From NCBI GenBank assembly GCA_965203905.1, contig CBDBDQ010000005.1, positions 6,400,001 to 6,464,000 of the forward strand: a stretch of 64,000 nt of DNA, read 5' to 3'. The notes below the pieces were generated by a model. The model saw only the letters and a list, made by a program, of their open reading frames with translations, made no database searches and was not told the origin of the DNA. Every line of letters starts with the position of its first letter. The stretch's first letter is position 1. The translations under genes were made by a program, and so were the position numbers. Source of the stretch: Spirochaetia bacterium (GTDB lineage Bacteria; Spirochaetota; Spirochaetia; SZUA-6; Bin103). Of the stretch, positions 41,375 to 62,471 are shown piece by piece.

Positions 41375-42454
41375 TTAGCGAAGACCGGGAATAAACTGCG
41401 CCGGGTTGAGCTGAATGTTGCCGCGGCGAATCTCGAAGTGGAGATGGGGGCCGGTAGAGCGGCCGGTCGATCCGATACGGCCCACGGTCTCGCCGCGACG
41501 TACCGTCTGGCCGCGACTCACGTAGATCCGGTCCAAGTGCCCATACAGCGATGAGTAGCCGGCCAGGAAATGGGACACGATGATGTAGTTGCCCAGCACC
41601 GCGCCGCGGCCGACCGCGGCCACCCGACCACCCTGCGTGGCGCGCACCGGCGTGCCGCGCGCTGCGGCAATGTCGATTCCGCGGTGGAAACTGCGGCGGC
41701 CGGTGAACGGATCGATACGCGGACCGAAGCGGGAGCTGACCCAACCGTTGGCGGGTCGGTCAAAGGCTGCGCCGATCGCCAGGGTCAACTCACGCCCCGA
41801 GTGCTGCACGCCCGGGAAGAACAACTCCATGGAGGGCCGCAGGAGGTCGCGGGTCACCCGGTTGGTGCTCAGCACCGTTTCCGGGAGCACTCCGTGGCGC
41901 AGGCTCAGTGCATCCAGATCGTTGCCGACGGGCAGAAAGATGCCGTCCTGGTTGGGAATCTGGATCAACTCGCCGACCGCCAGAAAGTGGACGCCAACCC
42001 CGGCGGTGCGATTCAGCGAAGCCACGGTATCGAGGGTGAGCCCGAAACGCTGTGCAATGACGCTGAAGTTGTCGCCGGCCTTGACCCGGTATTGCTTGAC
42101 GTCGAGCGGCAGTGGCTCCAGTTCCATGCCCCCGCGGAGGTCGCCATCGTTCGCGCTCACCGCCTGCGCTGAAGGGGCTGGCTCCAGGCGCGAAAACTCG
42201 ATCTGGATCGTGTCCAACCAGTCGCTCGGATAGTACAGGTACTCCTGCTCGTCATAGAGCGCCGCGCGCGTGGACCCGATGACGGCGACCTGCACGGCGA
42301 ACACGGTCAAGCCGCACGCCACCGCTGCCACCAGCCACCGGTGCACTCGTCGCCCCGTGCGCCGGCCACGGCGGCGGCGCCTGGTCACGTGCGGCTCTCC
42401 AACCTGCGCGGACATCCGCAACAGATTACTGCAGGTGCTCGGACGGGTCGACAT
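41375..42454 (-). CDS. LysM and M23 peptidoglycan endopeptidase
   Basis: YRVKAGD LysM, HRGID, YGH, STGPHLHFE. Confidence 0.9.
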   Translation of the reverse strand: MSTRPSTCSNLLRMSAQVGEPHVTRRRRRGRRTGRRVHRWLVAAVACGLTVFAVQVAVIGSTRAALYDEQEYLYYPSDWLDTIQIEFSRLEPAPSAQAVSANDGDLRGGMELEPLPLDVKQYRVKAGDNFSVIAQRFGLTLDTVASLNRTAGVGVHFLAVGELIQIPNQDGIFLPVGNDLDALSLRHGVLPETVLSTNRVTRDLLRPSMELFFPGVQHSGRELTLAIGAAFDRPANGWVSSRFGPRIDPFTGRRSFHRGIDIAAARGTPVRATQGGRVAAVGRGAVLGNYIIVSHFLAGYSSLYGHLDRIYVSRGQTVRRGETVGRIGSTGRSTGPHLHFEIRRGNIQLNPAQFIPGLR

Positions 42455-43745
42455 GCGCTCCGTTCAGAAAGATCGAAAAGTGCAGATGGTCCTCGCTACT
42501 GTACCCGGTGTTCCCCATCTCGCCTACCTGCTGCCCCTGCCGGATGCGATCGCCGACCGTCACCAGTGCCTTGTCCAGGTGGGCGTACAACGTCTGGAAG
42601 CCTTCGGCATGACGCAGAATGAGGTAGCGGCCGTAGTTGCCGTTGTACCCCGCCTTTGCCACGGTGCCGCTCATCGCCGCGACCACGGAAGTTCCGCGCT
42701 GGTTGGCGATGTCGATGCCGTTGTGGAACTTGCGCAAGCCGGTAAAGGGGTCGTTGCGATAGCCGTACCCGGATGTTATGGGTCCGCGGGCGGGCCTGAC
42801 GAACAGTTGGCCGAGCACGCGGTTGCGGGCGTTCTCACTGAGCCCCACGCCCGGTATCAACAGGCTCTGTCCGGGAGTGATCGGCGAGCTCTCCACTTCG
42901 TTGATGTCGAGCAGAGCTGCCAGGCTCACCCCGTGACGCATCGCAATGCGGCTCGGGTTGTCGCCACGCCGCACCACGTAGCGGATTCCCGACCGGTTCG
43001 GAATGATCAGTTCCCGTCCCGGCTTCAGATCACGCTCACGCTTGATGTCGTTGAAACTGATAATCGTGTCCAGAGTGATGCCGAACCGGTCCGCCAGTGC
43101 GGCCAGAGTGTCCCCGGCGCCTACCTGGTAGCGCTCGTAGCGCACCCCCGGCTGGGCGCCTGGCGGAGTGTCCGCGCCGTCGGCGTCGGCAACCGACCTT
43201 GCGGTGGCAGCGGCGCCGATACTCCTCAGGTTGTCGAGCAGCGCCTTCTGCAGCCCGCCGTCGCCCGGTCGCAGCACTGCCCGCGTGCCGGCGCTGCCCA
43301 GGCCGGCCACCGCAGGAGCGACGAACTGGACCACCGCCGTGGCGCTGAAGGCGGCCGCTACCAGCAGCAGCCCCACCGCGACGGGAACGGGTCGGATCCA
43401 ACGCCGGGCCAGCAGGCCGCAACTCGCGCGCACACGGTTGAGGGTCTCGAACACTGCCGACCACGGGATGGCACGCCACAGGCGGTCCGTCTGGCCGCGG
43501 GACCGCGGCGGGTCGAGCAAGGCCGGCAGCCCGGAACGCAGCGGCGGCAGCGGAATCGCCGCCGTTGCACTCACGCTGAGATCCTCCATCCGGACGCCGG
43601 CGCGCTTATGACGGCTCGGCTGCTGCCTGATGCGGCTCGGTTGTTGGTTGTGCAGTGCCGAACGGGTGCCGTGCCGGTGGCGACGCCCGACTCTGCGCCG
43701 TCCGACGCGCTGGCCCCGCAAACCGGCGTAGGTGGCGTCACGCAT
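42426..43745 (-). CDS. LysM (x2) and M23 peptidoglycan endopeptidase
   Basis: YQVGAGDTL, YVVRRGD, HNGID, YAH, HLHF; start uncertain. Confidence 0.88.
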   Translation of the reverse strand: MRDATYAGLRGQRVGRRRVGRRHRHGTRSALHNQQPSRIRQQPSRHKRAGVRMEDLSVSATAAIPLPPLRSGLPALLDPPRSRGQTDRLWRAIPWSAVFETLNRVRASCGLLARRWIRPVPVAVGLLLVAAAFSATAVVQFVAPAVAGLGSAGTRAVLRPGDGGLQKALLDNLRSIGAAATARSVADADGADTPPGAQPGVRYERYQVGAGDTLAALADRFGITLDTIISFNDIKRERDLKPGRELIIPNRSGIRYVVRRGDNPSRIAMRHGVSLAALLDINEVESSPITPGQSLLIPGVGLSENARNRVLGQLFVRPARGPITSGYGYRNDPFTGLRKFHNGIDIANQRGTSVVAAMSGTVAKAGYNGNYGRYLILRHAEGFQTLYAHLDKALVTVGDRIRQGQQVGEMGNTGYSSEDHLHFSIFLNGAHVDPSEHLQ

Positions 43746-43754
43746 TCATTCTGC

Positions 43755-43782
43755 ATATCGACAACTCGTGCGCCGGTCATTA
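43755..43782 (-). promoter_or_regulatory. Putative sigma28 (FliA) promoter upstream of the M23 peptidases
   Basis: TAAT-16 nt-GTCGATAT compared with consensus TAAA-N15/16-GCCGATAT; the -35 overlaps an upstream stop codon. Confidence 0.4.
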
Positions 43783-44250
43783 CGTCCGAGTGGCTGGCTT
43801 GGTCGCCGTGCCGGGATCGGGCCGGTGCGGCACCAGACCGCGGTCGGCCGCCAGGTTGAGGATCAGCTCCACCTCGCCCGGGCTGGTAGCGAGGCGGTCA
43901 GCGATCACGGCGCTGGAGAATCCGAGGCCCCGTAGCCGCATCACCTGAGCCTCCCGCTCCCCGGCGCCACCGCAAAGGGCAGGCGCCGCCGCATGGCGCT
44001 GTTCCGGAACACTCCGCGACGCCCGTCGATCGGCCTCGCGCAGCGATTCGTCCAGACGCCGGATTCGATCTTCCAGCAGGGTGACGTTACGCTCCGCGGT
44101 GGCGTTCATCTCGGCTGTCAATTCGGCCACCCGAGAGCACAGCGCAGGCGCTTGGTCGAACCCGCGAAGTCTACGATCGAGATATCGTCGCAGCACCAGA
44201 AACAACACCGCAAGCCCGACAAGCTGCACCGCAACGAGGGCTAAGACCAC
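43780..44250 (-). CDS. Hypothetical protein: N-terminal TM helix, coiled coil, C-terminal HTH-like segment
   Basis: 'EMNATAERNVTLLEDRI', 'GFSSAVIADRLATSPGEVELIL'. Confidence 0.65.
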   Translation of the reverse strand: MVLALVAVQLVGLAVLFLVLRRYLDRRLRGFDQAPALCSRVAELTAEMNATAERNVTLLEDRIRRLDESLREADRRASRSVPEQRHAAAPALCGGAGEREAQVMRLRGLGFSSAVIADRLATSPGEVELILNLAADRGLVPHRPDPGTATKPATRT

Positions 44251-44260
44251 GCGCTAGCGC

Positions 44261-45073
44261 TCAAGTGATGCCACGTTTGAGGTTGGTCAGCTTGGCTCGC
44301 AGCCGGATGATCGCCTTGGTGTGAAGCTGCGACACGCGGGACTCGGTGACCTCCAGCACCTCGCCAATCTCGCGCAGTGTCAGCTCCTCGTAGTAATACA
44401 GCACGAGCACCCGTTGTTCCTTTTCCGGAAGCTCCTTGAGGGCCTCCAACATGACCCGCTTGATCTCATCCTTCTCTACGATGGTGTCGGGATTCAAGCT
44501 CGCCGGAGACTCCACGCTCTCCGCGATCGAGATGCGATCACTGTCATCGCCGCTGTGCCACAAGTCATTCAACGACATCACCGCGGTGCTGCTGATCTTC
44601 AGCAGCAACTGCTGAAATTCCTTCAGCGGCAGATTCATCTCGCGGGCCAGCTCGGCATCGGTCGCAGCGCGTCCCAGAGTAGCCTCCAGCTGGCGGACGG
44701 TATCCTCCACTTCGCGGGCTTTCTGGCGAACCGAGCGGGGCACCCAGTCATTGCTGCGCAGTTCGTCGAAAATCGCCCCGCGAATACGGGTCACGGCGTA
44801 GGTCTTGAACTTGACGTGCTTGGTGGGGTCGAACTTCTCGATGGCGTCGAACAGTCCGAACACGCCATATCCGACCAGGTCATCGAACTCCACGCTGCCG
44901 GGCATGCCCACCGCTACCTTTCCGGCCACGTACTTGACCAGCGGGGCATACTGTCGCACGAAGTAGTCACGGATTGCTATATCTTTATTAGCCCTATAAT
45001 TGTTCCACATTTCCTGTTCTTCGTCCTGGCTCAGCGGAGCGGTCGTCCTGCGCTCTTGGATACTAGTCGACAT
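44261..45073 (-). CDS. fliA: RNA polymerase sigma factor FliA/WhiG (sigma28)
   Basis: YAPLVKYVA, FKTYAVTRIRGAIFDELRSNDWVPRS, LTLREIGEVLEVTESRVSQLH. Confidence 0.95.
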   Translation of the reverse strand: MSTSIQERRTTAPLSQDEEQEMWNNYRANKDIAIRDYFVRQYAPLVKYVAGKVAVGMPGSVEFDDLVGYGVFGLFDAIEKFDPTKHVKFKTYAVTRIRGAIFDELRSNDWVPRSVRQKAREVEDTVRQLEATLGRAATDAELAREMNLPLKEFQQLLLKISSTAVMSLNDLWHSGDDSDRISIAESVESPASLNPDTIVEKDEIKRVMLEALKELPEKEQRVLVLYYYEELTLREIGEVLEVTESRVSQLHTKAIIRLRAKLTNLKRGIT

Positions 45074-45328: not shown

Positions 45329-46597
45329 TCATGCGGTCACCCGAGAGGCTTCCTCGGAACGCCACGAGGAAGCGGCCACCGAATTCTGTGTGGCTCCGGT
45401 ACTGGCGCCGAATTGCTCCTCCAGCAACCTGCGATCGAGACGAAACCCATCCAGGCTCAGGAGCAAACGCAGGGCCGATGCCGGCGCGATGTCCTGCGGT
45501 ACCACTTGCCCATCGCAACAGTAGGAAAGCGGTTTCCGGACGGCTCCGAGGACCGACAGCAGATTTCCAATGGTGGCCGTCTCGTCGAGCTTGGTAACGA
45601 TTACACCATCGTACGCAAACGGCTCGAATTGACGCATGATCTCCTCCAGGTCGGCGTACTTCGTGGTCGCGCTTACCACCAGCTGAGTGGTGCCGTGGCG
45701 GCCCACGGCGTCGAGCAACGAACGTATCTCTGCCAAGTGCGTATAGTTGCCTGGACTGCGCCCCACGGTGTCAACGAAAATCACCTCGGCGTCCTGCCCC
45801 AGCGCGATGGCCTTCTTCAGCTCGTCGGCAGTTTCCGCCGCCGTAACCGGGATTCGCATGATCTCGCCGTAGGTCTCGATCTGCTGGCGTGCGCCGATGC
45901 GGTAGTTGTCGATGGTCACGATGCGCACCCGGCAATCCGGCGACTCGGCGCTGCCGCCGATCGCGTGCAGTGCCGCCAGCTTGGCGATGGTCGTCGTCTT
46001 GCCCACGCCGGTGGGTCCAACCACGGTGCAGATGCGCGGTCCGGCGGCAGCGCCGACAGCCTCCGCCAGCGGGGCGGCCAGCCGCACCTCGCGGCCGATC
46101 TGGCACGCCACGTACTGATGCACCGCGGGCAGATCATCCAGTTTCGACAACGGGAACTCCGCCCGCACCTGCTCGATCAGCCGCCGCCGCACGTGCGCGG
46201 CGAAGTCGTTGCGCAGCAGCAACGCGTCGAGAGCGTCCAGTTGCGGATGCCCGGTCTGGCGGGGGGCGATCGCGGCTCCTTCGGGGAGCGACTCATCCAG
46301 ACGGGAGCGCAGTGCGGCGACCTCGTCCGCCAGCCGTTGCAGCCCGGTGCCGGACGCCGCACGATGCAGGATCTTGCGCTTTTCGCCGTCCAGGTCGGTC
46401 ACTTCGGGAGTTCCGTGCTCCGGCGTCGACGGTTCCACGAAACCGGTGATCTCCACACCGTCGCGGGCGAACAGCCCCAGCACACCACCCATCCGTACCG
46501 GACGATGGGAGTGAATACGGGCCTCGGGTCCATACAACCGCTTCATGGTCGCCAGGGCTTCGCGGGGTGTCGCACCCTGAATCGTGAAGTACTCCAT
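45329..46597 (-). CDS. flhF: SRP-type GTPase FlhF
   Basis: MEYFTIQG...[43 protein letters not shown]. Confidence 0.93.
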   Translation of the reverse strand: MEYFTIQGATPREALATMKRLYGPEARIHSHRPVRMGGVLGLFARDGVEITGFVEPSTPEHGTPEVTDLDGEKRKILHRAASGTGLQRLADEVAALRSRLDESLPEGAAIAPRQTGHPQLDALDALLLRNDFAAHVRRRLIEQVRAEFPLSKLDDLPAVHQYVACQIGREVRLAAPLAEAVGAAAGPRICTVVGPTGVGKTTTIAKLAALHAIGGSAESPDCRVRIVTIDNYRIGARQQIETYGEIMRIPVTAAETADELKKAIALGQDAEVIFVDTVGRSPGNYTHLAEIRSLLDAVGRHGTTQLVVSATTKYADLEEIMRQFEPFAYDGVIVTKLDETATIGNLLSVLGAVRKPLSYCCDGQVVPQDIAPASALRLLLSLDGFRLDRRLLEEQFGASTGATQNSVAASSWRSEEASRVTA

Positions 46598-46605
46598 CGG
46601 CAACC

Positions 46606-48591
46606 TCAGCGGCCGTCTCCCAGCCGCACCTCGGCAACCGACTGCAAGGCGACCTCAGGCGCCACCTCGGTAGTTGCCAGACACACCAGATGGGGGAGCT
46701 CCCGGCGGGTGGTTGCGCGTACCCGGACGCGGGCCTCGGAGGAACTCAGTACCGCGGGCCGGACTCCCTGTCGCGAGGCCCGCGCGAGGGTCCCGGACAG
46801 CGCCTCGATCCAGCGCCGCCGCGCCCCCGCTTCCATGCCGTGCGCCGCGTCAGCGCCGGCCAGAAGCTGCCGTTCGCACTCCGGTGCGAGGGTGATCACG
46901 CGCAGCACTCCGTCGCTGCCGGCATGCTGCAGGCTGATCTGGCGGGCCAGGGTGCGCCGTACCTGTTGCACCAGGAAGGCTGGGTCGCGGTTTGCGGACG
47001 CCCAATCTGCCAGCGTCTCCAGAATCGCCGGCAAGTCACGGATCGCTACCTGCTCCGCCAGCAGTCCCTGCAGCACGCGCCGGATTTCGCCGATCGACAA
47101 CACAGCGGTCACTTCTTCCACGGTAGTGGGATAATCCGCGCGCAGGCGGTCCAGCAGCGACCGCACCTGGTCGCGTCCCAACAGCTCCGCGGCGTGTCCA
47201 CGCAACAGCGCGCCGAGCCGGGCAACCAGAGCGTCGTTACTTCCGATCCGCCCGCGGCCCCGGCCCGCCTCGATGCCACGGATCTTCAGCAGATACTCCG
47301 ACGGCGCCAACTGCAGGTTGTCGCAAACCCGAACGTGCGGCACCGGGACGCCCCACTCCTGAGCCATCTGCGCGCGCAGGCGGGCGATGCGATCGAGCAA
47401 GTCGCCACCTGACTGGCCCTCGGCCATCGGCACCAGGGCGAGGCCCAGCTCCAGGCGCAGCGGCTCCGGAGGCGCCCCCGCCGCGGCGCCGGCGCCGTCG
47501 GCGCGCGCGGCGTACGCCGTGGCGGCCGCGCCCGCCACGGCGTACGGTTCGCCGGCGCCGGAATCCGCCTCACCTCCGGCGGCAGCCTGGGTCGCGCGCT
47601 CACCGGGTCGCGCCCGAGCCACGGCGTAGCCCAGCGCCGCGACTGCCGCCGCCAGCGGCAGCAACAGCAGCGGCGGGAACCCCGGCAGCAGCGCCAACAC
47701 CGCCAGGAACGCTCCGGTGATGTAGAAGGGGCGATCGTAGAACGAGAACTGGCGGGCCAGGTCGCGGCCGAACGAAACGCCGGAGATCGCTCGTGTGACG
47801 ACGATGCCGGTAGCGGTTGAGATCAGCAGCGCCGGAAGCTGGGTCACCAGACCGTCGCCGATGGTGAGGGTGGCATAGGTCTGCGCCGCCGCGGCCAGGG
47901 ACTCGCCATGTACGCTCACCCCCATGATCAGGCCGCCCGCGAGATTGACCAGGGTGATGATGATGGCGACGCGGACGCTGCCCGAGACGAACTTGGAAGC
48001 ACCATCCATGGCGCCGTAGAAGTTGCTCTGCCGCTGCAGCTCCTGCTTGCGCTGCTGAGCCTGAACCTCGGTGAGCAGGCCGGCGTGATACTCCGCGTCG
48101 ATCGCCATCTGCCGGCCCGGCAGGGCATCCAGGGTGAATCGGGCCGCTACCTCCGCCACCCGCGTCGAGCCCTTGGTAATGACGACGAACTGTACCGCGA
48201 TGATTATGGTGAAGATGACGAGACCGATCAGGTAGCCGGCGACGCCGGACGCCCCTACCACGAAACTGCCGAATGCACGCACCACGCGCCCGTCGAAGGC
48301 CGCTCCCTGCGCCAGGATGAGGCGGGTCGAGGACACGTTGAGGGCCAGGCCGAAGACCGTGGCCAGCAGCAGCAGGGTGGGAAACACCGTGAACTCCAGG
48401 GTGTCGCGGGCGTACAGCACGATGAGAATCACCAGCAGGCTGAGGCAGATGTTGAGCAGCATGAACAGATCGAGCAGCACCCCCGGCAAGGGGATGAGCA
48501 GCATCAGGATCGCCACGCACACGAACACCGCCACCAGAACGTCGCCGCGCTGGCGCCACCGCTCCCCGACACCGTGCCTCACGTCGGCCAT
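46606..48591 (-). CDS. flhA: Export apparatus protein FlhA with an internally deleted cytoplasmic domain
   Basis: FPTLLL, LNVSSTRLIL, RVAEVAARFTLDALPG, FYGAMDGASKF, IGDGLV, IRDL..ILE; RBS GGAGG. Confidence 0.93.
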   Translation of the reverse strand: MADVRHGVGERWRQRGDVLVAVFVCVAILMLLIPLPGVLLDLFMLLNICLSLLVILIVLYARDTLEFTVFPTLLLLATVFGLALNVSSTRLILAQGAAFDGRVVRAFGSFVVGASGVAGYLIGLVIFTIIIAVQFVVITKGSTRVAEVAARFTLDALPGRQMAIDAEYHAGLLTEVQAQQRKQELQRQSNFYGAMDGASKFVSGSVRVAIIITLVNLAGGLIMGVSVHGESLAAAAQTYATLTIGDGLVTQLPALLISTATGIVVTRAISGVSFGRDLARQFSFYDRPFYITGAFLAVLALLPGFPPLLLLPLAAAVAALGYAVARARPGERATQAAAGGEADSGAGEPYAVAGAAATAYAARADGAGAAAGAPPEPLRLELGLALVPMAEGQSGGDLLDRIARLRAQMAQEWGVPVPHVRVCDNLQLAPSEYLLKIRGIEAGRGRGRIGSNDALVARLGALLRGHAAELLGRDQVRSLLDRLRADYPTTVEEVTAVLSIGEIRRVLQGLLAEQVAIRDLPAILETLADWASANRDPAFLVQQVRRTLARQISLQHAGSDGVLRVITLAPECERQLLAGADAAHGMEAGARRRWIEALSGTLARASRQGVRPAVLSSSEARVRVRATTRRELPHLVCLATTEVAPEVALQSVAEVRLGDGR

Positions 48592-49727
48592 GCAGCCTCC
48601 GTGCCACCGGTGTGGCGCACTGCCGCCAGAAGCCTGGCCGCCGGCTGGTAGAACGGTTCCGGAATCGGATCCCCGACGGCGACCTCCCGCCACACCGCTT
48701 CCGCCAGCGTTCGGTCCTCCACCACGGCTACGCCGTTGGCCGCGGCCAGCGCTCCGATCCGCTGCGCGGCGGTCGCCATCCCCTTGGCTACCACCACCGG
48801 TGCGCGCATGGTCGTGCCGTCCCAGCGCAGCGCCACCGCGCGTCGTTCACCGTGGGCAATCACCACGTCGGCCGCCGCCACCTGAGCGCCCATGGTGCGG
48901 CGCAGCAGCTCGCGCATGCGGCCCCGCAGCCGATCCCGGACCGCCGGGTCGCCCTCCTGGCGGCGGCGTTCGTCGCGTACCTCCCGCGGTGACATCCGCA
49001 ACCGCAGCCGATGCCGATAGCGCCGGAACAGGTAGTCGACCAGGGCCAGCGCCAGCAGCGCGACCGCCGTCTGGGCGCCGCAACGCAGGGCCGCGCGTGC
49101 CAGCACGGCGCCGGCCACGGCCAGCGACGTGCCGGCCAGCGTCTCCAGCACGGTGCCGATGGTGGACACGGCAGCGGCGCCGACGACCACTACCTTGAGC
49201 AGTTCCTTGACCAGGCTGAAGACCGCCTCTGCCGAGAGCGCGCGCTGCCGCAAGCGCCTCCAGCGCGGCACGATACGGCTCAGGTCGGGCACCACGGGGC
49301 GCACGGCGACTCGCCGTCCACCCTGCACCAGGTTTCCCAACAAGGCGCCCGCCACGCCGACCGCCGCCACCGGCAGCGACAGCCGGGCGACATAGCTGAA
49401 CGCCGCCGGCGCAATCGCGGCCGGCTCCGGAACCTGCGCGGTTCCGATTGCGGCCAGGAAGTGGCGTACCATCGCGCCGGTGCTGGCGATCAGCGAGGAG
49501 CCGAGCAGCGCCAGGGCGGTGACTCCGCAGAGCAGCACGAGCGCTGCCGTCAGCTCGGGAGAGTGGAACCCCTGTCCGGTCTCCCGCGCCGTGCGCATGC
49601 GCAGTGCGCTGGGTGGCTCGGTGCGGATCTCGTCAGCCTCCGCGAACCATTGCAGGTGCACATGGGCATAGCCCGCGGCGAACGCGCCCGCAACGGCCGT
49701 TGCGGCGGTGGAGCAGCCGGCGCTCAC
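48579..49727 (-). CDS. flhB: Export apparatus protein FlhB lacking the NPTH motif
   Basis: HLQWFA..RTEPPS, LRMSPREVRDERRRQEGDP, ADVVIAHGERRAVAL, APVVVAKG; GTG overlaps the fliR stop. Confidence 0.9.
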   Translation of the reverse strand: MSAGCSTAATAVAGAFAAGYAHVHLQWFAEADEIRTEPPSALRMRTARETGQGFHSPELTAALVLLCGVTALALLGSSLIASTGAMVRHFLAAIGTAQVPEPAAIAPAAFSYVARLSLPVAAVGVAGALLGNLVQGGRRVAVRPVVPDLSRIVPRWRRLRQRALSAEAVFSLVKELLKVVVVGAAAVSTIGTVLETLAGTSLAVAGAVLARAALRCGAQTAVALLALALVDYLFRRYRHRLRLRMSPREVRDERRRQEGDPAVRDRLRGRMRELLRRTMGAQVAAADVVIAHGERRAVALRWDGTTMRAPVVVAKGMATAAQRIGALAAANGVAVVEDRTLAEAVWREVAVGDPIPEPFYQPAARLLAAVRHTGGTEAAWPT

Positions 49728-50581
49728 GGTGCCCCCACCTGCGGCACCGAGCCGCCCGGCGGCAGTGTCCGCGCTGCGGCGCCCAACTCCGCGAGGAGCC
49801 GGCGCAGTTCCACGAAGGCGCCATCGATCACCGCCGCCGCCGCATCGAGCAGCAGCGGCAGGGTGAGCAGCAGGAGCACCAGTCCTGCACCCAGCGAGAC
49901 GGGCAGCCCCAGCATCAGCAGATTCATCTGCGGCGCTGCCTTGGCCAGCAGGGCGAGCGCGATCGATACCAGCAGCAAGGCGCCGAAGATCGGCAGCGCG
50001 ATGGTCAGGGCGGTGCTGAACAGCCGGGCCAGACTGCCGGCTGCGCGCTGCAGCAGCAGCCCTGCGCCGCGCAGGGCACCGGCCTCCAGGCTGATCACCA
50101 GATCGGCCGCGCGCAAGGCTTGAAACGAGCCCGCGACGCCCACCAGCAGCAGCCGGTGCAGCCCGCCGACCGAGAGGAACACCAGTACCGCCAGCAGTGA
50201 GAACACCTGGCTCAACAGGGGTGACCGATGGCCTGACAGCGGATCGAACAGCTCCGCGACGCCGAAGCCGACCGACAGCGATATGAACTGCCCGGCCAGG
50301 CGCAGCGCGGCGAAAGCCAGATACACCAGAAAGCCGAGCAGGGCACCGAGCAGAGCCTCGCCCAGCAGCAACAACCCGTACTGCATGCCCGATGGCGGCA
50401 GCGGATAGCCCGCGGCCGCTACGCCGGGCAGCGCGATCAGAGCGATGAACACGGCCAGACCGATCTTTCCCACCTGCGGAATCGCGCGCGACGAGAGCAG
50501 CGGAGCTACCTGGATCATGGCCAGCACCCGCGCCAGCACCAGGAGTCCCACCCCCAGGTCGTCGAGCAGGCCGCGGATCAC
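49724..50581 (-). CDS. fliR: Export gate protein FliR
   Basis: AGQFIS..GFG..FDP, KAAPQMN. Confidence 0.92.
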   Translation of the reverse strand: MIRGLLDDLGVGLLVLARVLAMIQVAPLLSSRAIPQVGKIGLAVFIALIALPGVAAAGYPLPPSGMQYGLLLLGEALLGALLGFLVYLAFAALRLAGQFISLSVGFGVAELFDPLSGHRSPLLSQVFSLLAVLVFLSVGGLHRLLLVGVAGSFQALRAADLVISLEAGALRGAGLLLQRAAGSLARLFSTALTIALPIFGALLLVSIALALLAKAAPQMNLLMLGLPVSLGAGLVLLLLTLPLLLDAAAAVIDGAFVELRRLLAELGAAARTLPPGGSVPQVGAP

Positions 50582-50624: not shown

Positions 50625-50894
50625 TCATCGCGCCATCCCCGGTATGCTCTCGAACAGGCGCCGGGTGAAGTCCAGCATGGAGCCGCCGAGCCAGGGGCCC
50701 AGCAGCAGTGCGGTTCCGAGGACGGCGAAGATCTTCGGCACGAACGTGAGCGTCTGCTCCTGGATCGACGTGGTGGCCTGCAGAACCGAGATCACGAGTC
50801 CCACCAGCACACTGATCAGCAGCATCGGACCCGCCATCAACAGTAGTTGCAGCACGGCGTCCCGTGCCAGGCCGGCTACCGCGCCCAGCGTCAC
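50625..50894 (-). CDS. fliQ: Export gate protein FliQ
   Basis: VGLVISVLQATTSIQEQTLTFVPKI; GTG start with RBS GGAGG. Confidence 0.93.
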   Translation of the reverse strand: MTLGAVAGLARDAVLQLLLMAGPMLLISVLVGLVISVLQATTSIQEQTLTFVPKIFAVLGTALLLGPWLGGSMLDFTRRLFESIPGMAR

Positions 50895-50961
50895 GAACGG
50901 CCTCCGCGCAGCCGCCGGCGGCCACCGTGCACTGCCCCGGGTGCCGTTTTGCCGTGGCACC

Positions 50962-51750
50962 TCACCGGAAGCTCCCTATCACCTGCATGGTGAGCAGGTC
51001 CCAGCCGTCCACCAGGACGAACAGGATCAGTTTGAACGGCAGCGAGATGAGCACCGGGGGCAACACGATGATGCCCATCGAGATCAGGGTCGTCGCCACC
51101 ACCATGTCGATGATGACGAACGGGATGAAGATGAGAACGCCGATCTTGAACGCCACCGTCAGCTCATGGAGGATGAACGCAGGGATGAGAATGTAGGTCG
51201 GCACGTCGGCCCGGGTGTTCGGCTTGGGCAGCTCACGCATGCGCATGAACAGACGGATGTTGTCGGCGTCGTCGCCAAGCTGGCGGAACATGAATTCGCG
51301 CACCGGCACTTCCGCGCGCTGCAGCAGCTGGGTGCTGCTCAGCTCGCCGCGGGTAAACGGCTGCAGCGCGTCGCGATTGATCGCCTCGAACGTCGGCCAC
51401 ATGATGAACGCGGTAAGGAACAGGGCGACGCCCATCAGCACCTGGTTGGGCGGCATCTCCTGCAGCGACAACGCTCGCTTGACGAAGTGGAACACGATCG
51501 CCAGGCGCAGAAACGAGGTGGTCAGGATCATGATCGAGGGTGCCAGGGAAAGCACGGCCAGGAGCACCAGGAGCTGCAGGGACAGCGCCAGTTCCTGATT
51601 CGACTGCGCGTCGCGCAGAGTCAGATCCAGAAACGGAATGCCGGGCGCGGAGACGGCCTCCGGCGCCACCGACTGAGCCGCGGCCGGCAGCGGTCCGCAC
51701 AGCGCTGCGGCCAGCAGCGCCGTGGCGATCAACAGGCTAGTCCGCGGCAC
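50962..51750 (-). CDS. fliP: Export gate protein FliP
   Basis: Signal peptide, TSFLR, PPNQVL, PAFILHEL, SLPFKLILFVLVDGW. Confidence 0.95.
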   Translation of the reverse strand: MPRTSLLIATALLAAALCGPLPAAAQSVAPEAVSAPGIPFLDLTLRDAQSNQELALSLQLLVLLAVLSLAPSIMILTTSFLRLAIVFHFVKRALSLQEMPPNQVLMGVALFLTAFIMWPTFEAINRDALQPFTRGELSSTQLLQRAEVPVREFMFRQLGDDADNIRLFMRMRELPKPNTRADVPTYILIPAFILHELTVAFKIGVLIFIPFVIIDMVVATTLISMGIIVLPPVLISLPFKLILFVLVDGWDLLTMQVIGSFR

Positions 51751-52465
51751 CGACTTCCCCCGGTTGCCGCCGGCGGCGGAGGCGCTGCAGCCGCTCCTGC
51801 TGGCGCTGCAGGAAGTCGGCGGCAGCCGCGGTTGCGGCCGCCGCGCCCGATGCCGCGCCCGGTGCCGCGCCGGGTGCGGGACCGATGTCGGCCAGCAGAT
51901 CGGCAAAGCGGCCTCCCGCTGCGCGCGGCTGCGCGTGATTCGGTGTCAGCGCTTGGATGCTGTCCTGATCGGTTATCTGCGCGATGAGGTTGAGGGTCTG
52001 GTCCGTAGCACCGATCAGGTACACGCCGCCTCCCACCTGCACCAGGTGCAGGTGGCGGCTGCCACCGAGCGACCGGGAACCGAGCAGGGCGATGCGGTCA
52101 GCGTTGCCGACGCTGGCCCGGGAGCTGCGCCTGATGAGCCGGAACAGCAGGTAGATGGCGCCGAGCACCGCCGCGAGCACCGCGACCATACGCACGAAGT
52201 CACCGGTGGAGACCGCCGCCGGCACGGCCGGCACCGCACGGTTCTCCGCCGCCCGCGACAGTGGCGTCAGGTCCGCCGCCGTGCCGGACGCATCGGCTTC
52301 CTGGGCAGACGCGGCACCCACCACGCCCAGCCACGCCACGGCCAACAGCAGCGCCGTCGCAACAGGTAGGTATGTCCGCCGTGCACGCGTACGACGCGCG
52401 CCACGGTGTGCTGCAGTGTACAGGTTGTTCCCCTCCCAGGAACGTAGCCGAACCACGCTCATCAC
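51737..52465 (-). CDS. fliO: FliO/FliZ family protein
   Basis: TM helix then 'LGSRSLGGSRHLHLVQVGGGVYLIGA...LIAQI'; located between fliN and fliP; start uncertain. Confidence 0.8.
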   Translation of the reverse strand: MMSVVRLRSWEGNNLYTAAHRGARRTRARRTYLPVATALLLAVAWLGVVGAASAQEADASGTAADLTPLSRAAENRAVPAVPAAVSTGDFVRMVAVLAAVLGAIYLLFRLIRRSSRASVGNADRIALLGSRSLGGSRHLHLVQVGGGVYLIGATDQTLNLIAQITDQDSIQALTPNHAQPRAAGGRFADLLADIGPAPGAAPGAASGAAAATAAAADFLQRQQERLQRLRRRRQPGEVGAAD

Positions 52466-52626: not shown

Positions 52627-53004
52627 TCACGTTCCCCCGTCCTCGCGGAGTGCCATTGCAGGCTCCGCGCGGCCGACGATCTCCGTCACGCGCACGCCGA
52701 AGTTGTTGTCGATCACCACCACCTCGCCACGTGCTATCGGCTTGTGGTTCACCAGGATTGCGACCGGCTCGCCGGCGAGCTGGTCGAGTTCGATCACCGC
52801 CCCCGCGTTGATGTCGAGCACCTCGCGGATGGTTCGCGTGGTGCTGCCGAGCTCGACCGTCATGCGCAGATCCACGTCCATCAGCAGGCCGATGTCCGCC
52901 TGCTCCGAGGTTGCTGCCGAAGCCTGTTCGAAGTCGGGAAGCTGCACCGGCCGCACCTCGGTCGCGGCGGCGCCGGCGTCATGCAGGGCCCGGTCGGCGC
53001 TCAC
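52627..53004 (-). CDS. fliN: C-ring protein FliN (SpoA only, no FliY phosphatase domain)
   Basis: LLMDVDLRMTVELG...LDQLAGEPV...GEVVVIDNNFGVRVTEI; GTGA overlap with fliM. Confidence 0.9.
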   Translation of the reverse strand: MSADRALHDAGAAATEVRPVQLPDFEQASAATSEQADIGLLMDVDLRMTVELGSTTRTIREVLDINAGAVIELDQLAGEPVAILVNHKPIARGEVVVIDNNFGVRVTEIVGRAEPAMALREDGGT

Positions 53005-54002
53005 GATACCGCCTCCGCCGGTTTCTCCAGCGGCTTCACCACCTGTACCGCGAAGCGCTTGCCGACCACTCCGGGAAGGCAGCGGAACTTGGGTTTGCCC
53101 GCCACCTTCAGGTATAGCTCGTCGCCCGGGCCACGGTCGTCGAGACGAATGAGGTCTCCCTTCTTCAGCCCCAGGACACGCGGCAACGGCAGCAGCGCGC
53201 TGCCGATCTCGGCGCTGATGGAGACCGGCACGCCCTGCAGCGCCTGGCGCACCGTCGCGTGACGCCCGGCCGCTCTCCGCGGCTCGCTTCCGAACGGGTG
53301 GTGAGGCGCGCCGCGGTCGCCAATCGACTTCAGGGTGAGGCAGGAGACGGCGAGCTGCAGCTCCCCCTCCACGCCGCCGATCCGGGTGCCGAACGCGACC
53401 CGCACCAGCATTCCTGCGGGAATCGACGCCGCCGCCGTCCGGTCGCGGCGCCGGCAGTACTCCAGCCGCGGCCGAATCGGGACCAGTGGCTGCCACGCCG
53501 ACTGCAGATCAGGAAGCAGGCTGGAGATACGGTTCTGCAACACCGACGCTTCGATCTCGCTCAGTTCGCGAGACGGCACGGTGGGCACGCCCTGGCCTCC
53601 GAGCAGGCGGTCGATCAGGGAATAGGCGAAGCGATGGTCGAGCGCAAGCACGGCGACGCCCGCCAGCGGGTCCAGCGCCACTGCGGCCAGCACCACGGCG
53701 CGCGCCAGCGCAGTGCGGAACTCCTCACCGCTGATCTGTGCCACGGAGTGAGGGACGATCTCGACCCGGGTGCGGGTCTGATTGGCGAGGGACTCGGCGG
53801 CCAGTGCGGCAAACGTCTCGTGCACGGTGGCGAGGGCGCCGACCTGGCGCTCGGAGAGACGGCCGGCGAACCCGAAGTCGTATGCGTCTGGCGTCATGCC
53901 ACTGACCGGCGACCCGGTACTTGCCGATAGCACGGCACTGCTGCTGGAGGCGGCGCAATCCAGCAGCGAGACATGACCGCGACGCGGGCCTGCATCAGCC
54001 AC
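53001..54002 (-). CDS. fliM: C-ring protein FliM with a degenerate N-terminus
   Basis: YDF...HETFA, IDRLLGGQG, RELSEIE, C-terminal SpoA (LKKGDLIRL); RBS GGGAGG. Confidence 0.88.
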   Translation of the reverse strand: MADAGPRRGHVSLLDCAASSSSAVLSASTGSPVSGMTPDAYDFGFAGRLSERQVGALATVHETFAALAAESLANQTRTRVEIVPHSVAQISGEEFRTALARAVVLAAVALDPLAGVAVLALDHRFAYSLIDRLLGGQGVPTVPSRELSEIEASVLQNRISSLLPDLQSAWQPLVPIRPRLEYCRRRDRTAAASIPAGMLVRVAFGTRIGGVEGELQLAVSCLTLKSIGDRGAPHHPFGSEPRRAAGRHATVRQALQGVPVSISAEIGSALLPLPRVLGLKKGDLIRLDDRGPGDELYLKVAGKPKFRCLPGVVGKRFAVQVVKPLEKPAEAVS

Positions 54003-54221: not shown

Positions 54222-55898
54222 TTACTTCTCGACCAGCCACGAGCGCAGCGTTCGCGCAGCATCCGCAGGCCGCTCGCGTGCCAGCCTGGCCGCGTTCTGT
54301 TGCATCTGCGCCTTGCTTCGCAAATTGGGGGGTGAAGCCGCCCAGCCGCCGCGGGCGGCGGCGCTCAACCGTGCGGGATGCATGCCGGAGCGCTGCGCGG
54401 CGTGCGACCGCCGGTGCCGCGCCCACAACCAGGAACCGAACGCCGTCAACAACAGCGCCGCCGCCCCGGCAACCGCCAGCGGCAGCATCCGCAACAGCTC
54501 CGCCTCGCGCCGCAGCACGGCGTCCTCCTGCTGGAACTGCCGCATGCGGTCGAACTGCAGGTGCTCGACGGTAACCGAGTCGCCACGCTGCGGGTCCCAG
54601 CCGATGGCGTCCTGGATCAGCAGCGTAGCCTTGCGCAAATCGTCCTCGGAAACCGGCGTGTACTCGCGCTGCACGCTGCCGTCGGCATGCAGCTGGATCT
54701 GGCCGTCGGGCCGGAACGTGGTCCGCCACACGCCATCGAGTGCGACACTTACGGTGATCCGGTTGATCGCCCATGGGCTCTTCTCCGTAACCGTGTTGCG
54801 GCGGTTGACCACCTCGTTGCGGGACACCGAGCTGCGCTGGTACGCGCCCGCGCCGGGACCACTGCCGGCACCGGCCGCCACCGGCGCAGACTCCTGAGCG
54901 GTCACCGGCCGCGTCTCCTCCTCGCGTTGTTCCGAAATCGTAATGGAGGGGACCTTGACCGACTCGTCGCTCTCCGTGTGCGGATTGTCGGCCCGCATGG
55001 CGATTGGAAAGTGCTCTTCGGTCTGGGTGGTTTCGGCCGACAGATCGAGATCGATGTCGAGCCGTACGATCTGCACTCGATCGAGCGTGAAGATCTTGCC
55101 CAGAGCGGTAAGGATCTCTCGCTTGTAGCGTTGCTCCAGGTCGAACTTGGTATTGAGCTGGCGCTCCACCAGAGCCGCGCGGCCCTGTCCGGCAAGGTCT
55201 CCGACGTCATTCACCTGGACCCCGCGGGGATCCAGGATCACGATGTTTTCCGCCCGCAGGCCGGCGACGGCAAACTGCACCAGGCGCTGGATGCCGGCGA
55301 CCTTCTTACGATCCTCGAGGATATCGGAGCCCAGTCGCGGGGTGATGATGATCGACGCCGTAGTCGGGTTCTGATCCTCCGCGAACAGCTCGGTCTCGGG
55401 CACCACCAGGGTGACGTTGGCGGCCACGACGTCGTCCAGGGCGGTAATGTGCTGCTCCAGGTTGCGGGTCAGGGCGCGCTGCAGGTTGACGTTGCGCTCG
55501 AAGTCCGTCATCGAGAAACGGTCCACCTCGAAGACGGAAAAGGGATCGGTATGCGGCGGCATCAGGTCCTCACGAATCAGGATTGCGCGCAGCCGCCGCG
55601 CGTTCTCCTGATCGGCCACCAGGATGCGGTTGTCGGAGGCGATCTGGTATTCGGCGCTCTCCTGATCAAGCCGTGCCGCGATCCGCAGGAGGTCCTGCTG
55701 ATCGCCGATTGGGGCACCGATAAGGGCAACCATGTGCCTGCCGGCGGCGATGGGCCCATCGCCGCGAGAGGCGCCGAGCAGTGTCAATGCGATGATCGAA
55801 GTGACGACCAGCGCGCTCAGCGACAGTTTCTGAAGCTGACTCCAACGACCCCAGAGGCCGGCCGCCCGCTGCCTCAGGCGTGCCAGGAGTTCGTTCAT
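54222..55898 (-). CDS. fliF: MS-ring protein FliF
   Basis: 'MTDFERNVNLQRAL', 'VQFAVAGL', 'ITVSVALDG', 'AIGWDPQRGDSVTV', C-terminal 'ARERPADAARTLRSWL'; RBS GGGAGG. Confidence 0.9.
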   Translation of the reverse strand: MNELLARLRQRAAGLWGRWSQLQKLSLSALVVTSIIALTLLGASRGDGPIAAGRHMVALIGAPIGDQQDLLRIAARLDQESAEYQIASDNRILVADQENARRLRAILIREDLMPPHTDPFSVFEVDRFSMTDFERNVNLQRALTRNLEQHITALDDVVAANVTLVVPETELFAEDQNPTTASIIITPRLGSDILEDRKKVAGIQRLVQFAVAGLRAENIVILDPRGVQVNDVGDLAGQGRAALVERQLNTKFDLEQRYKREILTALGKIFTLDRVQIVRLDIDLDLSAETTQTEEHFPIAMRADNPHTESDESVKVPSITISEQREEETRPVTAQESAPVAAGAGSGPGAGAYQRSSVSRNEVVNRRNTVTEKSPWAINRITVSVALDGVWRTTFRPDGQIQLHADGSVQREYTPVSEDDLRKATLLIQDAIGWDPQRGDSVTVEHLQFDRMRQFQQEDAVLRREAELLRMLPLAVAGAAALLLTAFGSWLWARHRRSHAAQRSGMHPARLSAAARGGWAASPPNLRSKAQMQQNAARLARERPADAARTLRSWLVEK

Positions 55899-55980
55899 GT
55901 TCCCCCTCCCAAGCTGCACGACGGCGCCGCGAGACCCGGCGGGTAACCGGCTCCCGTTGCGCCTGATTCGCGCATCGTCT

Positions 55981-56030
55981 GTTATGTCCGTGGAGGTCGC
56001 TCTTTGTCAACACGCAACGGAAAAAAATAA
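55981..56030 (-). promoter_or_regulatory. Putative sigma70 promoter with an UP-like T-tract upstream of fliF
   Basis: TTATTTTTTT...TTGACA-18 nt-CATAAC. Confidence 0.55.
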
Positions 56031-56144: not shown

Positions 56145-57539
56145 CTACAGGATGTAGCGGGTAAGGTCGCGGTCTTCGATGATCTTGGTGAGCCGCTCGT
56201 TCACGTAGTCGGGAGTGATGGTGACGCTCTGTCCCTGCAAATCCGGTGCGCTGAAGGAGAGCTCCTCCAACAGCAGCTCCATGATCGTGTGCAGGCGTCG
56301 GGCGCCGATATTCTCGGTGCTGCGATTCACCTCGGAGGCCAGCTCCGAGATCCGGTCAACTGCAGCCTCGGTGAACTTCAGCGTTACCTCCTCCGTGGCC
56401 AACAGCGCCGTGTACTGGGTGATCAATGCATTCCGCGGCTGCGTCAGGATGCGCTTGAAGTCGTCGCTTCCCAGGGCCGCGAGCTCCACTCGGATCGGGA
56501 AGCGCCCCTGCAGCTCGGGGATCAGATCCGCGGGCTTGCTCATGTGAAAGGCACCCGCGGCGATGAACAGGATGTGGGCCGTGTCGACGGTGCCCCACTT
56601 GGTGGTAACGGTGCTCCCCTCCACGATTGGCAGGATGTCGCGCTGCACCCCCTCGCGCGACACGTCGGCGCCGCCACGGCTGTCCTTCGCCGCTACCTTG
56701 TCGATCTCGTCGAGGAATATGATGCCCATCTGTTCGACCCGCTCGATGGCCAGTTCCGAAACCCGGTCCTTGTCCACCAGGCGATCGATCTCGTCCGCCA
56801 TCAACACCTGCCGCGCGCGCCGCACCGGCACCTTCTTCTTCTTCTTGCGACCGCCGAACAGGTTGCCGAGGTTGCCCAGGTTGATATCCATCTCCTCGAA
56901 GCTCTGTCCCGAGAAGATCTCGATCGCCGGACCGCTGCTGTCGGACACGTTCACCTCCACCAGCTTGTCATCGAGCTGTCCCGCGCGCAGCCGCTCGCGA
57001 AACTTGGTCACGGTCCCGGTCTCCGGCGCGATCGCCGCCGATTCGGCTCGCTTCACCACGGACGCCTCGGGCGCCGGTGGCGCCGGCGGCGGCTTCGGTT
57101 TTGGCTGGCGCAGGCCCGGCAGCAGCAACTCGAGCAGCTGTTCTTCGACGCGGGTCTCGGCCTCCTCCTGCACCCCGGCCTGCAACTCCCCCTTGACCAT
57201 GGAGATGGCCACCGAGGTCAGGTCCCGCACCATGGACTCGACGTCACGACCCACATAGCCCACCTCGGTGTACTTGGTGGCCTCCACCTTGACGAAGGGA
57301 GCCCGGCACAGTTTCGCCAAGCGGCGCGCGATCTCGGTCTTGCCCACCCCCGTGGGGCCGATCAGAATGATGTTCTTCGGCGCTACCTCGTCGCGCAGAT
57401 CGGGCGGCAGCTTGCGCCGCCGCAGGCGATTGCGCAGCGCAATCGCGACCGCTTTCTTGGCCTTCTCCTGCCCGACGATGTAGCGATCCAGTTCCTGCAC
57501 GATCTCCTTGGGACTGAGCTGGTCCAGATCGACGCTCAT
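56145..57539 (-). CDS. hslU: ATP-dependent protease ATPase subunit HslU
   Basis: [45 protein letters not shown]. Confidence 0.97.
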
Positions 57540-58075
57540 GACAGCTCCTCGACGACGATTTCCGAATTGGTATAGACGCAGATGTCGGCGGCGATCCGCA
57601 TCGAGCGCATCGCGATGTCGCGCGCGCTCAGTGCGGAACTCTCCAGATACGCACGCGCCGCGGCCAATGCGTAGTTGCCCCCGGAGCCGATGGCAATGAC
57701 CCCGTGGTCCGGCTCCAGCACATCACCGTTGCCGGAGATGAGCAAGGTCTGGCGCCGGTCCGCTGCCAGCAGCAGCGCCTCCAGCCGGCGCAGAATGCGG
57801 TCCGAACGCCAATCGCGAGCCAGCTCCACGCAGGCGCGGGTCAGGTCACCGCCGTATTCCTTGACCTTGCCCTCGAAGCGGTCGAACAGGGTGAACGCGT
57901 CGGCCGTACCGCCGGCGAAGCCGACGAGGATGGAGCCGTCGGCAACGGTGCGTACCTTGCGGGCGCTGCCCTTCAATATGGTGGCATCCAGGGTCACCTG
58001 GCCATCACCGGCCATTGCCACCGCCGCGTCGCGGCGAACGGCTACGATAGTGGTTCCGTGCATGCTGCTGTTCAT
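57536..58075 (-). CDS. hslV: ATP-dependent protease subunit HslV
   Basis: HGTTIV, GDGQVT, GFAG, AIGSGG, ICVYTN. Confidence 0.97.
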
Positions 58076-60211: not shown

Positions 60212-60265
60212 GTTATACTCAACGGCGCCGCGACCGGCGTGCTTTCAAGCAGTGCAAAGCGGACG

Positions 60266-61204: not shown

Positions 61205-61210
61205 GCAGCG

Positions 61211-62413: not shown

Positions 62414-62471
62414 TCAGTCGATGGTATTCGCACGCAGCCGCTCCGCGGCTACCCCTCGGCTTGCAGCGGAG

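Follow-up and report, generated by a model that had tools for sequence, protein, structure and literature searches.

Loss of the FlhB autocleavage motif within a reduced flagellar gene cluster of an uncultured Spirochaetia genus

The flagellar export-gate gene flhB was analyzed in a 64,000-nucleotide stretch of a Spirochaetia bacterium genome (GCA_965203905.1, contig CBDBDQ010000005.1, positions 6,400,001 to 6,464,000; hereafter the window). To our knowledge, autocleavage of FlhB/SctU proteins is treated as near-universal in type III secretion. The window FlhB carries His-Gly-Glu-Arg (HGER) at the position of the Asn-Pro-Thr-His (NPTH) autocleavage motif, and all flhB-bearing genomes examined from its genus lack the Asn-Pro pair. 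We read the surrounding gene cluster as the remnant of a flagellar export apparatus without switch and without ATPase, in which selection on the switch was probably relaxed while the core is still constrained. We give this reading a probability of about 0.75.

The FlhB cleavage site and its relatives

Genomes were compared at the level of the order, using 92 genomes from eight families (f1-f8); the window genome (G000) belongs to genus g1 of family f1. The flhB open reading frame (ORF) of the window matched Pfam PF01312 (FlhB/HrpN/YscU/SpaS) with an E-value of 5.5e-80 and 269.5 bits over profile positions 3-335 of 335. Its best sequence matches among PDB chains were FlhB chains (phmmer, E 1.3e-38 to 1.5e-31). 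The full-length profile match, the domain layout and the position between fliR and flhA place the protein in FlhB by homology. This fliR-flhB-flhA position was conserved in the window, in nine other g1 genomes, and in G035, a flagellated genome of the same order.

The plus-strand letters at 48843-48854 are tcgttcaccgtg, whose reverse complement CAC GGT GAA CGA encodes HGER, and the minus-strand translation of flhB includes AADVVIAHGERRAVALRWDG. In the phmmer alignment, ADVIVTNPTHYSVALQYD paired with ADVVIAHGERRAVALRWD of Salmonella FlhB, gap-free across the site. By the chain numbering printed in that alignment, the replacements are N269>H, P270>G, T271>E, and H272>R. The site was also ungapped against the spirochaete FlhB chains of the PDB. 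An earlier note on this DNA had reported HGER in place of NPTH within ungapped flanks, and the letters, the translation, and the Salmonella alignment bear this out. The functional class of autocleaving switches is marked by an Asn-Pro loop, in place of which the window FlhB has HGER. Without Asn, this loop would not form the succinimide needed for cleavage; the protein is predicted to be uncleavable from this chemistry and from mutant data of other species.

The window genome is a metagenome-type assembly of 7.99 Mb in 5 contigs, with 98.7% completeness and 7.9% contamination estimated from marker genes; genomes of the lineage are high in GC (66%) and 5-8 Mb in size. The contamination estimate gives some room to a sequencing or assembly error, or a contaminant contig, hiding a true gene that reads NPTH. 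However, flhB sits on a 7.79-Mb contig, and contigs from four sequencing runs (X1-X4) of two studies cover the site. The X1 contig spans 48807-48920 with 0 differences from the window, but it is not independent support because X1 may be the sample behind the assembly. In the contigs of X2, X3, and X4, three substitutions (48843 T>C, 48846 T>A, 48849 A>G) mark a strain variant whose translation is HGDR. Runs sharing a small part of the sequence words of the flhB stretch bear sponge, coral, and marine metagenome labels, from which no habitat is drawn, and no RNA run was listed for this stretch. Readings of NPTH, which the earlier note had named as evidence against its claim, did not occur among the contigs of the four runs; therefore, the site is not an assembly slip. 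With the codons backed by these contigs (one exact, three as HGDR) and the motif loss agreeing across ten genomes of the genus, the chance of an artefact is negligible.

The FlhB sequence was scored against 1.84 billion cluster-representative proteins, which gave 8070 matches at E<=0.001, and the query was aligned with the best 150. Asn-Pro was kept in 144 of these 151 sequences, mostly as NPTH (80), followed by NPVH (13), NPIH (9), NPTE (9), NPEH (6), and others, the variation falling on the third and fourth positions. Four of the seven sequences without Asn-Pro belong to the clade of the window protein (HGER, HGRR, DQAG, and DAAR). P0075 aligned over the transmembrane part only, and P0133 (GASG) and P0164 (SPRE) are separate cases. 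A separate homologue search gave 57 matches, 28 of which were aligned. All 18 with at least 45% identity lacked the motif and had variable residues in its place, whereas nine of the ten more distant homologues read NPTH. The exception was P0058, a distant protein from the word-based homologue search. Judged from these alignments, natural loss of Asn-Pro occurs outside the clade but is rare.

The earlier note had asked whether relatives share the loss, and they do. Asn-Pro was absent in 10/10 g1 genomes having flhB, whereas NPTH was found in 31/31 loci from seven flagellated sister families, f2-f8 (30 loci and G035). The g1 sites read HGER (G000, G009), HGGR (G003), DPAR (G001), DAAR (G002, G008, G010), AAAR (G005), GGAR (G006), and DGRR (G007), and the aligned homologue P0032 reads DPNQ. 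Within the genus, the flanks AADVVI-A and AVALRWD are near-invariant while the four motif positions vary.

The missing motif could also be supplied by another gene; the earlier note had proposed a search for an FlhX-like gene and had named a second canonical flhB as evidence against its claim. PF01312 matches were found in 68/68 genomes of f2-f8, with at least two matches in 60/68. The pair typically consists of a full-length FlhB (~380 bits) and an FlhX-like ORF of ~85 amino acids (aa) covering profile positions ~255-335 only, so that FlhX or FlhB C-domain-only proteins are common in the sister families. In contrast, the ten other g1 genomes had one PF01312 match each, which was a full-length FlhB of 180-270 bits in nine; in G004, labelled g1, the sole match was an FlhX-like ORF. 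The PF01312 search found no FlhX-like ORF in the window genome or in nine of the ten other g1 genomes, and no second flhB in the window genome, which has a single match above the cut-off. One further match at C5:2210958-2211110 (E 0.317, 12.2 bits, inside a 257-aa ORF) was below the cut-off and was taken as chance.

Gene losses and the deletion in FlhA

Profile searches of the window genome gave 0 matches at E<=1 for Flagellin_N (PF00669), Flg_bb_rod (PF00460), Flg_bbr_C (PF06429), Flg_hook (FliK), FliE (PF02049), and MotB_plug. FliI was not found either, the best match to fliI_yscN reaching 230.9 bits against a cut-off of 379.5. The six fliI_yscN matches are F-type ATPase, V-type ATPase, or Rho genes. 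A weak FliH match adjoins the F-ATPase genes, and FliH/J-like genes were not found. Across the order, flagellin was present in 68/68 f2-f8 genomes vs 1/23 other f1 genomes, and Flg_bb_rod was not found in G001, G010, G011, and G016.

The operon of G035 served as the reference, and 28 of its proteins were run by tblastn against the window genome. Its gene order is hslV-hslU-flgB-flgC-fliE-fliF-fliG-(fliH)-fliI-two ORFs-flgD-flgE-motA-motB-fliL-fliM-fliY-fliO-fliP-(fliQ, fliR)-flhB-flhA-flhF-flhG-...-DUF6115-cheW. Matches were obtained for HslV, HslU, FliF, FliG (at another locus), FliM, the C-terminal part of FliY/FliN, FliO, FliP, FlhB, FlhA, FlhF, and the DUF6115 protein. No match in the window genome was obtained for FlgB, FlgC, FliE, FlgD, FlgE, MotA, MotB, FliL, CheW, or the two ORFs after fliI, nor for the FliK-like ORF of G035. 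FliI of G035 matched F-/V-type ATPase genes only, and its FlhG matched weak ParA-like genes elsewhere in the genome. By this comparison, the window holds the ancestral operon minus three blocks, namely flgBC-fliE; fliHIJ, flgDE, motAB, and fliL, with fliG moved; and flhG.

Set against a complete flagellum, the MS ring, C ring, and export gate genes are present, and the axial proteins (FliE, rod, hook, and filament), FliI, and MotA/MotB are missing. The partners of a switch are missing as well, since neither FliK (Flg_hook) nor Flagellin_N was matched. As for late substrates, the genome has no flagellin; hook-filament junction and cap genes were not searched separately. Without Flagellin_N, a filament cannot be built. 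Moreover, with the rod, hook, FliE, FliK, FliI, and stator genes missing, no axial structure can be built at all. The statement of the earlier note that the system builds no filament was therefore an understatement, all the more as part of FlhA is also gone.

The deletion in FlhA concerns domain D2 of its cytoplasmic part (FlhA_C). In phmmer alignment, residues 482 and 488 of the window FlhA face Salmonella residues 433 and 487, respectively, leaving Salmonella 434-486 without a counterpart. The same gap of ~47 residues was present in 10/10 g1 FlhA proteins in a multiple alignment and absent in G035 and in G011 and G017 of the sister genus g2. The FHIPEP profile likewise matched the window FlhA in two pieces (2-402 and 455-656), as it generally did in g1 (2-402 and ~455-656), and matched g2 FlhA in one piece (2-656, >700 bits). 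We take D2 to span ~435-483, a boundary assumed here. The hydrophobic dimple between D1 and D2 of FlhA binds FliJ and substrate-chaperone complexes (PMC7911332, in part), and FlhA_C carries binding sites for chaperones with filament-type substrates (excerpts of PMC13639345). By alignment, half of the docking site for complexes of chaperones and late substrates would thus be deleted in g1 FlhA.

In parts of three sources (PMC7911332, PMC4183434, and PMC13639345), FlhB cleavage-site mutants are described as exporting rod/hook-type but not filament-type substrates, and specificity switching is said to require FliK and FlhA_C as well. The earlier note had suggested that this gate cannot switch, in keeping with a system without a filament. 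The absence of Flagellin_N, the sharing of the motif loss by relatives, and the absence of FlhX support this suggestion, which extends the genetics of Salmonella N269A/P270A to the window protein by analogy. FlhB might still switch, if the HGER loop or its vicinity were cut by another chemistry or if a different protein supplied the switch in trans. Asp-Pro stands at the site in G001 (DPAR) and P0032 (DPNQ), Asp can also cyclise, and an Asn-to-Asp mutant of EscU is reportedly cleaved in part. However, the window loop contains neither Asn nor Asp and no Pro, and the variability of the four positions within the genus argues against a new functional motif. Neither an FlhX-like gene nor a second flhB is present to act in trans, and FliK, flagellin, and FlhA D2 are lost. 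Continued switching is thus very improbable.

Retained fold, constraint, and the rest of the family

The window FlhB was modelled with AlphaFold2 on an 18-sequence clade alignment, giving an overall predicted local distance difference test score (pLDDT) of 67. The C-domain was modelled with higher scores: 10-residue blocks over residues 281-370 had a pLDDT of 79-90, most of them 87-90. The N-terminal region consisted of long helices (57-244) with a pLDDT of 60-80. The C-domain contains strands 288-292, 296-301, 311-317, and 334-337 plus helices, and the HGER loop joins the first two strands, which form a hairpin. In Foldseek searches, the C-domain matched EscU/YscU C-domains with template modelling (TM) scores of 0.88-0.93 (target-normalised) and a root-mean-square deviation of 0.8-0.9 A over 91-93 columns. 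The top PDB matches were EscU P263A, N262A, and N262D, YscU N263D and N263A, and the cleavage-inactive chlamydial homologue (CT091); the FliPQR-FlhB complex 6s3l_K was also matched. That mutant chains rank above wild types is due in part to the deposition of cleaved wild types as two chains, and the matches are taken to suggest the same fold in one chain and nothing beyond that.

Invariant columns of the clade alignment concentrate in the linker and C-domain, for example D287, V289, I290, V298-D303, A309, P310, V313, and A314 in first-sequence numbering. In addition, A286, P287, A341, and L344 of Salmonella FlhB pair with identical residues in the window FlhB. We take these four residues to make up the hydrophobic pocket in which early subunits dock by their gate-recognition motif. 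A pocket docking early subunits is described, without residue numbers in the part seen, in a review (PMC4183434).

Selection was estimated as the ratio of nonsynonymous to synonymous substitution rates (dN/dS) by the Nei-Gojobori method in five genome pairs. The values were 0.27-0.49 for FlhB, 0.28-0.60 for its C-domain, 0.22-0.40 for FliP, and 0.23-0.36 for FlhA, compared with 0.03-0.13 for fliA, the only control. Every correctly extracted gene had a ratio below 1. These are rough values, because Nei-Gojobori at ~85-90% GC at third codon positions probably underestimates dS, and four rows with 11-15% identity were dropped as extraction or frame artefacts (hslU G002-G008 and G001-G010, fliN G007-G009, and fliF G000-G009). 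The flhB ORF was intact in all 10 g1 genomes, and all examined cluster genes were open despite FlhB identity down to 45%. Furthermore, the C-terminal ~225 residues of FliP were up to 89% identical between genomes whose FlhB was 45-48% identical.

From these results, the following course may be proposed. The window flhB would descend from the flagellar flhB of spirochaetes as its orthologue, in a lineage that probably deleted the rod, hook, filament, FliK ruler, FliI export ATPase, and stator genes and kept FliF, FliG/FliM/FliN, FliOPQR, FlhB, FlhA, FlhF, and sigma-28. Once filament-type cargo was gone, the early-to-late switch would no longer have been under selection, the Asn-Pro site would then have decayed into a variable, uncleavable loop, and FlhA_C domain D2 would have been deleted. 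The rest of FlhB would have stayed under constraint in its transmembrane domain, linker, C-domain fold, and presumed early-substrate pocket residues. FlhB would most likely be a single uncleaved chain on FliPQR, in a gate running on proton-motive force alone and held in one specificity state. Export without FliH/FliI is possible on proton-motive force according to part of PMC7911332.

The sister genus g2 was reduced further. No PF01312 match was found in 10/13 g2 genomes, and G011, G017, and G021 matched profile positions 1 to ~240-249 only. These three hold fliF, fliO, fliP, fliQ, fliR, an FlhB of ~265 aa, a canonical FlhA, and fliA, and fliM, fliN, fliG, and flhF were not found in them. Their FlhB (L058 in G021, L059 in G011, and L060 in G017) has no C-domain; it ends soon after the EGD(P/A) linker motif, still with the Trp-Pro-Thr/Lys residues at its terminus, and its gene still overlaps flhA. 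The gene sets of g1 and g2 therefore indicate that the two genera reduced the machine differently.

A sigma-28 orthologue (70-96% identity) was present in 23/24 family genomes, including 13/13 g2 genomes. An FlgM-like 95-aa anti-sigma-28 protein (G000:C5:1825660-1825944; L073:1411-1695, plus strand), scoring 24.3 bits with PF04316 just under the cut-off of 25, was also present in 23/24 family genomes, including 13/13 g2 genomes and 10 without an export gate. Since the sigma-28/FlgM-like pair outlives the gate, it cannot be the sole reason for keeping the gate.

The genome was also scanned with what we take to be the sigma-28 promoter consensus (TAAA-N14-16-GCCGATA type). Eight of the 10 matches are one site in an insertion sequence, and no regulon was readable. 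This 1.3-kb insertion sequence has eight copies in G000:C5 with 99.3-100% identity (e.g., 345060-345086, 466257-466283, and 4132531-4132557). Near one end, just upstream of the transposase frame, each copy carries TAAA-N16-GCCGATAA, which resembles the consensus with one extra spacer base.

One genome labelled g1 differs from the others. G004 (81% complete, 510 contigs) contains flagellins, flgB/flgC, a canonical-type FliM, and the FlhX-like ORF. Its flagellar contigs C79, C183, C262, C390, and C41 (L065-L069) have 65-68% GC, and its FliM is nearer to that of G035 (46%) than to the window FliM (30%). No full-length flhB or flhA was recovered from this 81% complete genome. G004 could be an early branch with flagella or else a mixed bin.

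Several points weigh against our reading. Because of G004, the motif loss is not demonstrated for every member of the genus. The sister genus lost the apparatus in 10/13 genomes and the FlhB C-domain in the other three, which implies that the machine is dispensable in this family. The FlhA of G007 and G009 is shortened further (493 and 523 aa). The apparatus dN/dS of 0.27-0.6 is several-fold above that of fliA in the same pairs, so the constraint is weak and could reflect slow decay. The term uncleavable draws on chemistry and on mutants of other species, and a gate held in the early state would lack a recognised substrate for that state.

Some of these points also favour a whole cluster that is non-functional and drifting to loss, with an idle gate and the NPTH loss as one neutral lesion of many. 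Such a relic would fit the graded loss, from the 11 genes kept in g1 through fliF-fliOPQR-flhB (transmembrane part only)-flhA in 3/13 g2 genomes to none in 10/13. It would also fit apparatus ratios (0.2-0.6) well above those of fliA, the truncation of FlhA_C in 2/10 genus genomes, and a sigma-28 and FlgM-like protein that are independent of the gate, as they persist in 13/13 g2 genomes even without it. However, the examined genes are all open in 10 g1 genomes although FlhB has diverged to 45% identity, and no correctly extracted gene has a dN/dS of 1 or more. The invariant columns cluster in the FlhB C-domain, the C-terminal part of FliP can be far better conserved than FlhB between the same genomes, and gene order and overlapping start and stop codons are preserved. 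We consider a pure relic, the main rival, unlikely.

A remnant whose core is still constrained may have kept some activity. The retained FliF-FliG-FliMN-FliOPQR-FlhB-FlhA-FlhF set could, as a tentative possibility that we rather doubt, be a working minimal type III exporter that releases non-flagellar cargo into the periplasm. Lacking FliE and rod proteins, the set could export no farther than that compartment. If true, this would be a minimal exporter without ATPase, ruler, switch, or rod, driven by proton-motive force in a non-motile spirochaete. Candidates for the cargo would include the FlgM-like anti-sigma factor or proteins that have yet to be identified, and the uncleavable FlhB C-domain would be a permanent single-state cargo dock.

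Cluster layout, known systems, and significance

The features of the cluster are listed in Table 1. The window order is hslVU-fliF-fliM-fliN-fliO-fliP-fliQ-fliR-flhB-flhA-flhF-fliA-DUF6115-like, and the same order was found in the nine other flhB-bearing g1 genomes as far as each contig or stretch extends. Overlapping start and stop codons were also kept. The hslVU genes ancestrally adjoin the spirochaete flagellar operon on its upstream side, and fliF occupies the place where flagellated relatives carry flgB-flgC-fliE, as compared with G035. A DUF6115 protein lies in the same neighbourhood in flagellated relatives.

Table 1. Features of the reduced flagellar gene cluster, in window positions
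Feature	Position	Strand	Evidence and remarks
DUF6115-like small gene	43780-44250	minus	PF19610 E 0.002, below cut-off; G035 tblastn 4.8e-9; syntenic in genus
fliA (sigma-28-type)	44261-45073	minus	Sigma70 r2/r3/r4 domains
flhF (GTPase of signal recognition particle type)	45329-46603	minus	PF00448 1.1e-33; no flhG after it
flhA	46606-48693	minus	maximal ORF, likely start ATG near 48591; PF00771 7.3e-199, two stretches
FlhA deletion junction	47224-47243	minus	~47 residues lost, corresponding to Salmonella FlhA 434-486 (domain D2 of FlhA_C)
flhB	48579-49727	minus	382 aa; protein P0002; GTG start overlaps fliR stop (GTGA)
FlhB C-terminal cytoplasmic domain	48603-48890	minus	residues ~280-375 of P0002; modelled as one continuous chain
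HGER codons at the NPTH position (Salmonella N269-H272)	48843-48854	minus	sequence, translation, ungapped alignment
fliR	49724-50581	minus	PF01311 1.3e-56
fliQ	50625-50960	minus	PF01313 7.9e-28
fliP	50962-51906	minus	PF00813 2.5e-71
fliO	51737-52465	minus	PF04347 1e-12
fliN	52627-53496	minus	maximal ORF; FliMN_C part ~52675-52956; PF01052 2.6e-24; G035 FliY tblastn C-terminal part only
fliM	53001-54002	minus	PF02154 6e-35 and PF01052
fliF (MS ring)	54222-56006	minus	PF01514 and PF08345; directly after hslU
hslU and hslV	56145-58066	minus	Pfam AAA_2; tblastn with G035 HslV/HslU 66% identity

The fliG gene is an orphan outside the operon (G000:C5:6224405-6225583; L003:652-1833). It sits between an RRM-domain gene and a DUF1223 gene, near a V-type ATPase operon.

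Two further neighbourhoods were observed in the window. At 41375-43745, 3' of fliA and the DUF6115-like gene, lie two tandem genes for LysM and M23 peptidase proteins. The pair is syntenic in 9/11 loci of both genera, with both copies in 8 and one complete copy plus fragments in L055; in this count, L004 stops inside the first copy and L070 was left out. These peptidases are a possible idea for cargo, for which the N-termini of the maximal ORFs were inspected only, with start codons uncertain. Upstream of hslVU, at 58072-63758, two Xer-like tyrosine recombinase genes flank dprA and are followed by ftsZ and ftsA; thus, the reduced flagellar operon adjoins the end of a division gene cluster.

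Reduced flagellar sets and flagellum-less spirochaetes are already known. The window FlhB resembles Salmonella FlhB N269A/P270A and the EscU/YscU/Spa40 mutants in its predicted uncleaved single-chain C-domain of the same fold. However, those mutants are laboratory point changes in complete flagella or injectisomes, whereas here four residues were replaced in nature across the genus, in a system without rod, hook, ruler, ATPase, and filament. Buchnera aphidicola basal bodies are a reduced system that kept basal-body structural genes and the type III export machinery (PMC8109811, in part). The flagellar type III secretion-like genes of Lysobacter enzymogenes OH11 are still export-competent and affect twitching motility; Lysobacter retains FliI, and its system can secrete a late substrate, namely heterologous flagellin (PMC7277350, in part). 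As far as these sources go, both lost flagellin and retained export-gate genes as the window lineage did. Unlike them, the window system has neither rod and hook nor FliI, and both of its determinants for late substrates are gone. The string NPTH has 0 occurrences in the Lysobacter paper (PMC7277350).

Among spirochaetes, the non-motile coccoid Sphaerochaeta, Parasphaerochaeta, and Bullifex also lost motility. Almost no motility-category gene is left in them, and spiral shape is inferred to have been lost only once (part of a preprint, PMC12236494). In contrast, the uncultured window lineage retains an 11-gene core. A bounded full-text literature search, judged by titles and abstracts, listed no paper on a natural FlhB without the cleavage motif or on a spirochaete with a partial flagellar set.

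The genus represents a natural experiment in which the FlhB cleavage loop and FlhA D2 were both removed, while the gate, MS ring, and C ring remained open-reading and constrained over a long divergence. This gives comparative support for cleavage serving the switch and not basic gate assembly, and it shows which parts of the FlhB C-domain are needed apart from switching. The g2 FlhB without a C-domain adds further natural forms, and together the genomes of one family show the flagellum dismantled in steps. Furthermore, the role of a flagellar export core without flagellar cargo can be approached in this genus with a small, defined set of genes.

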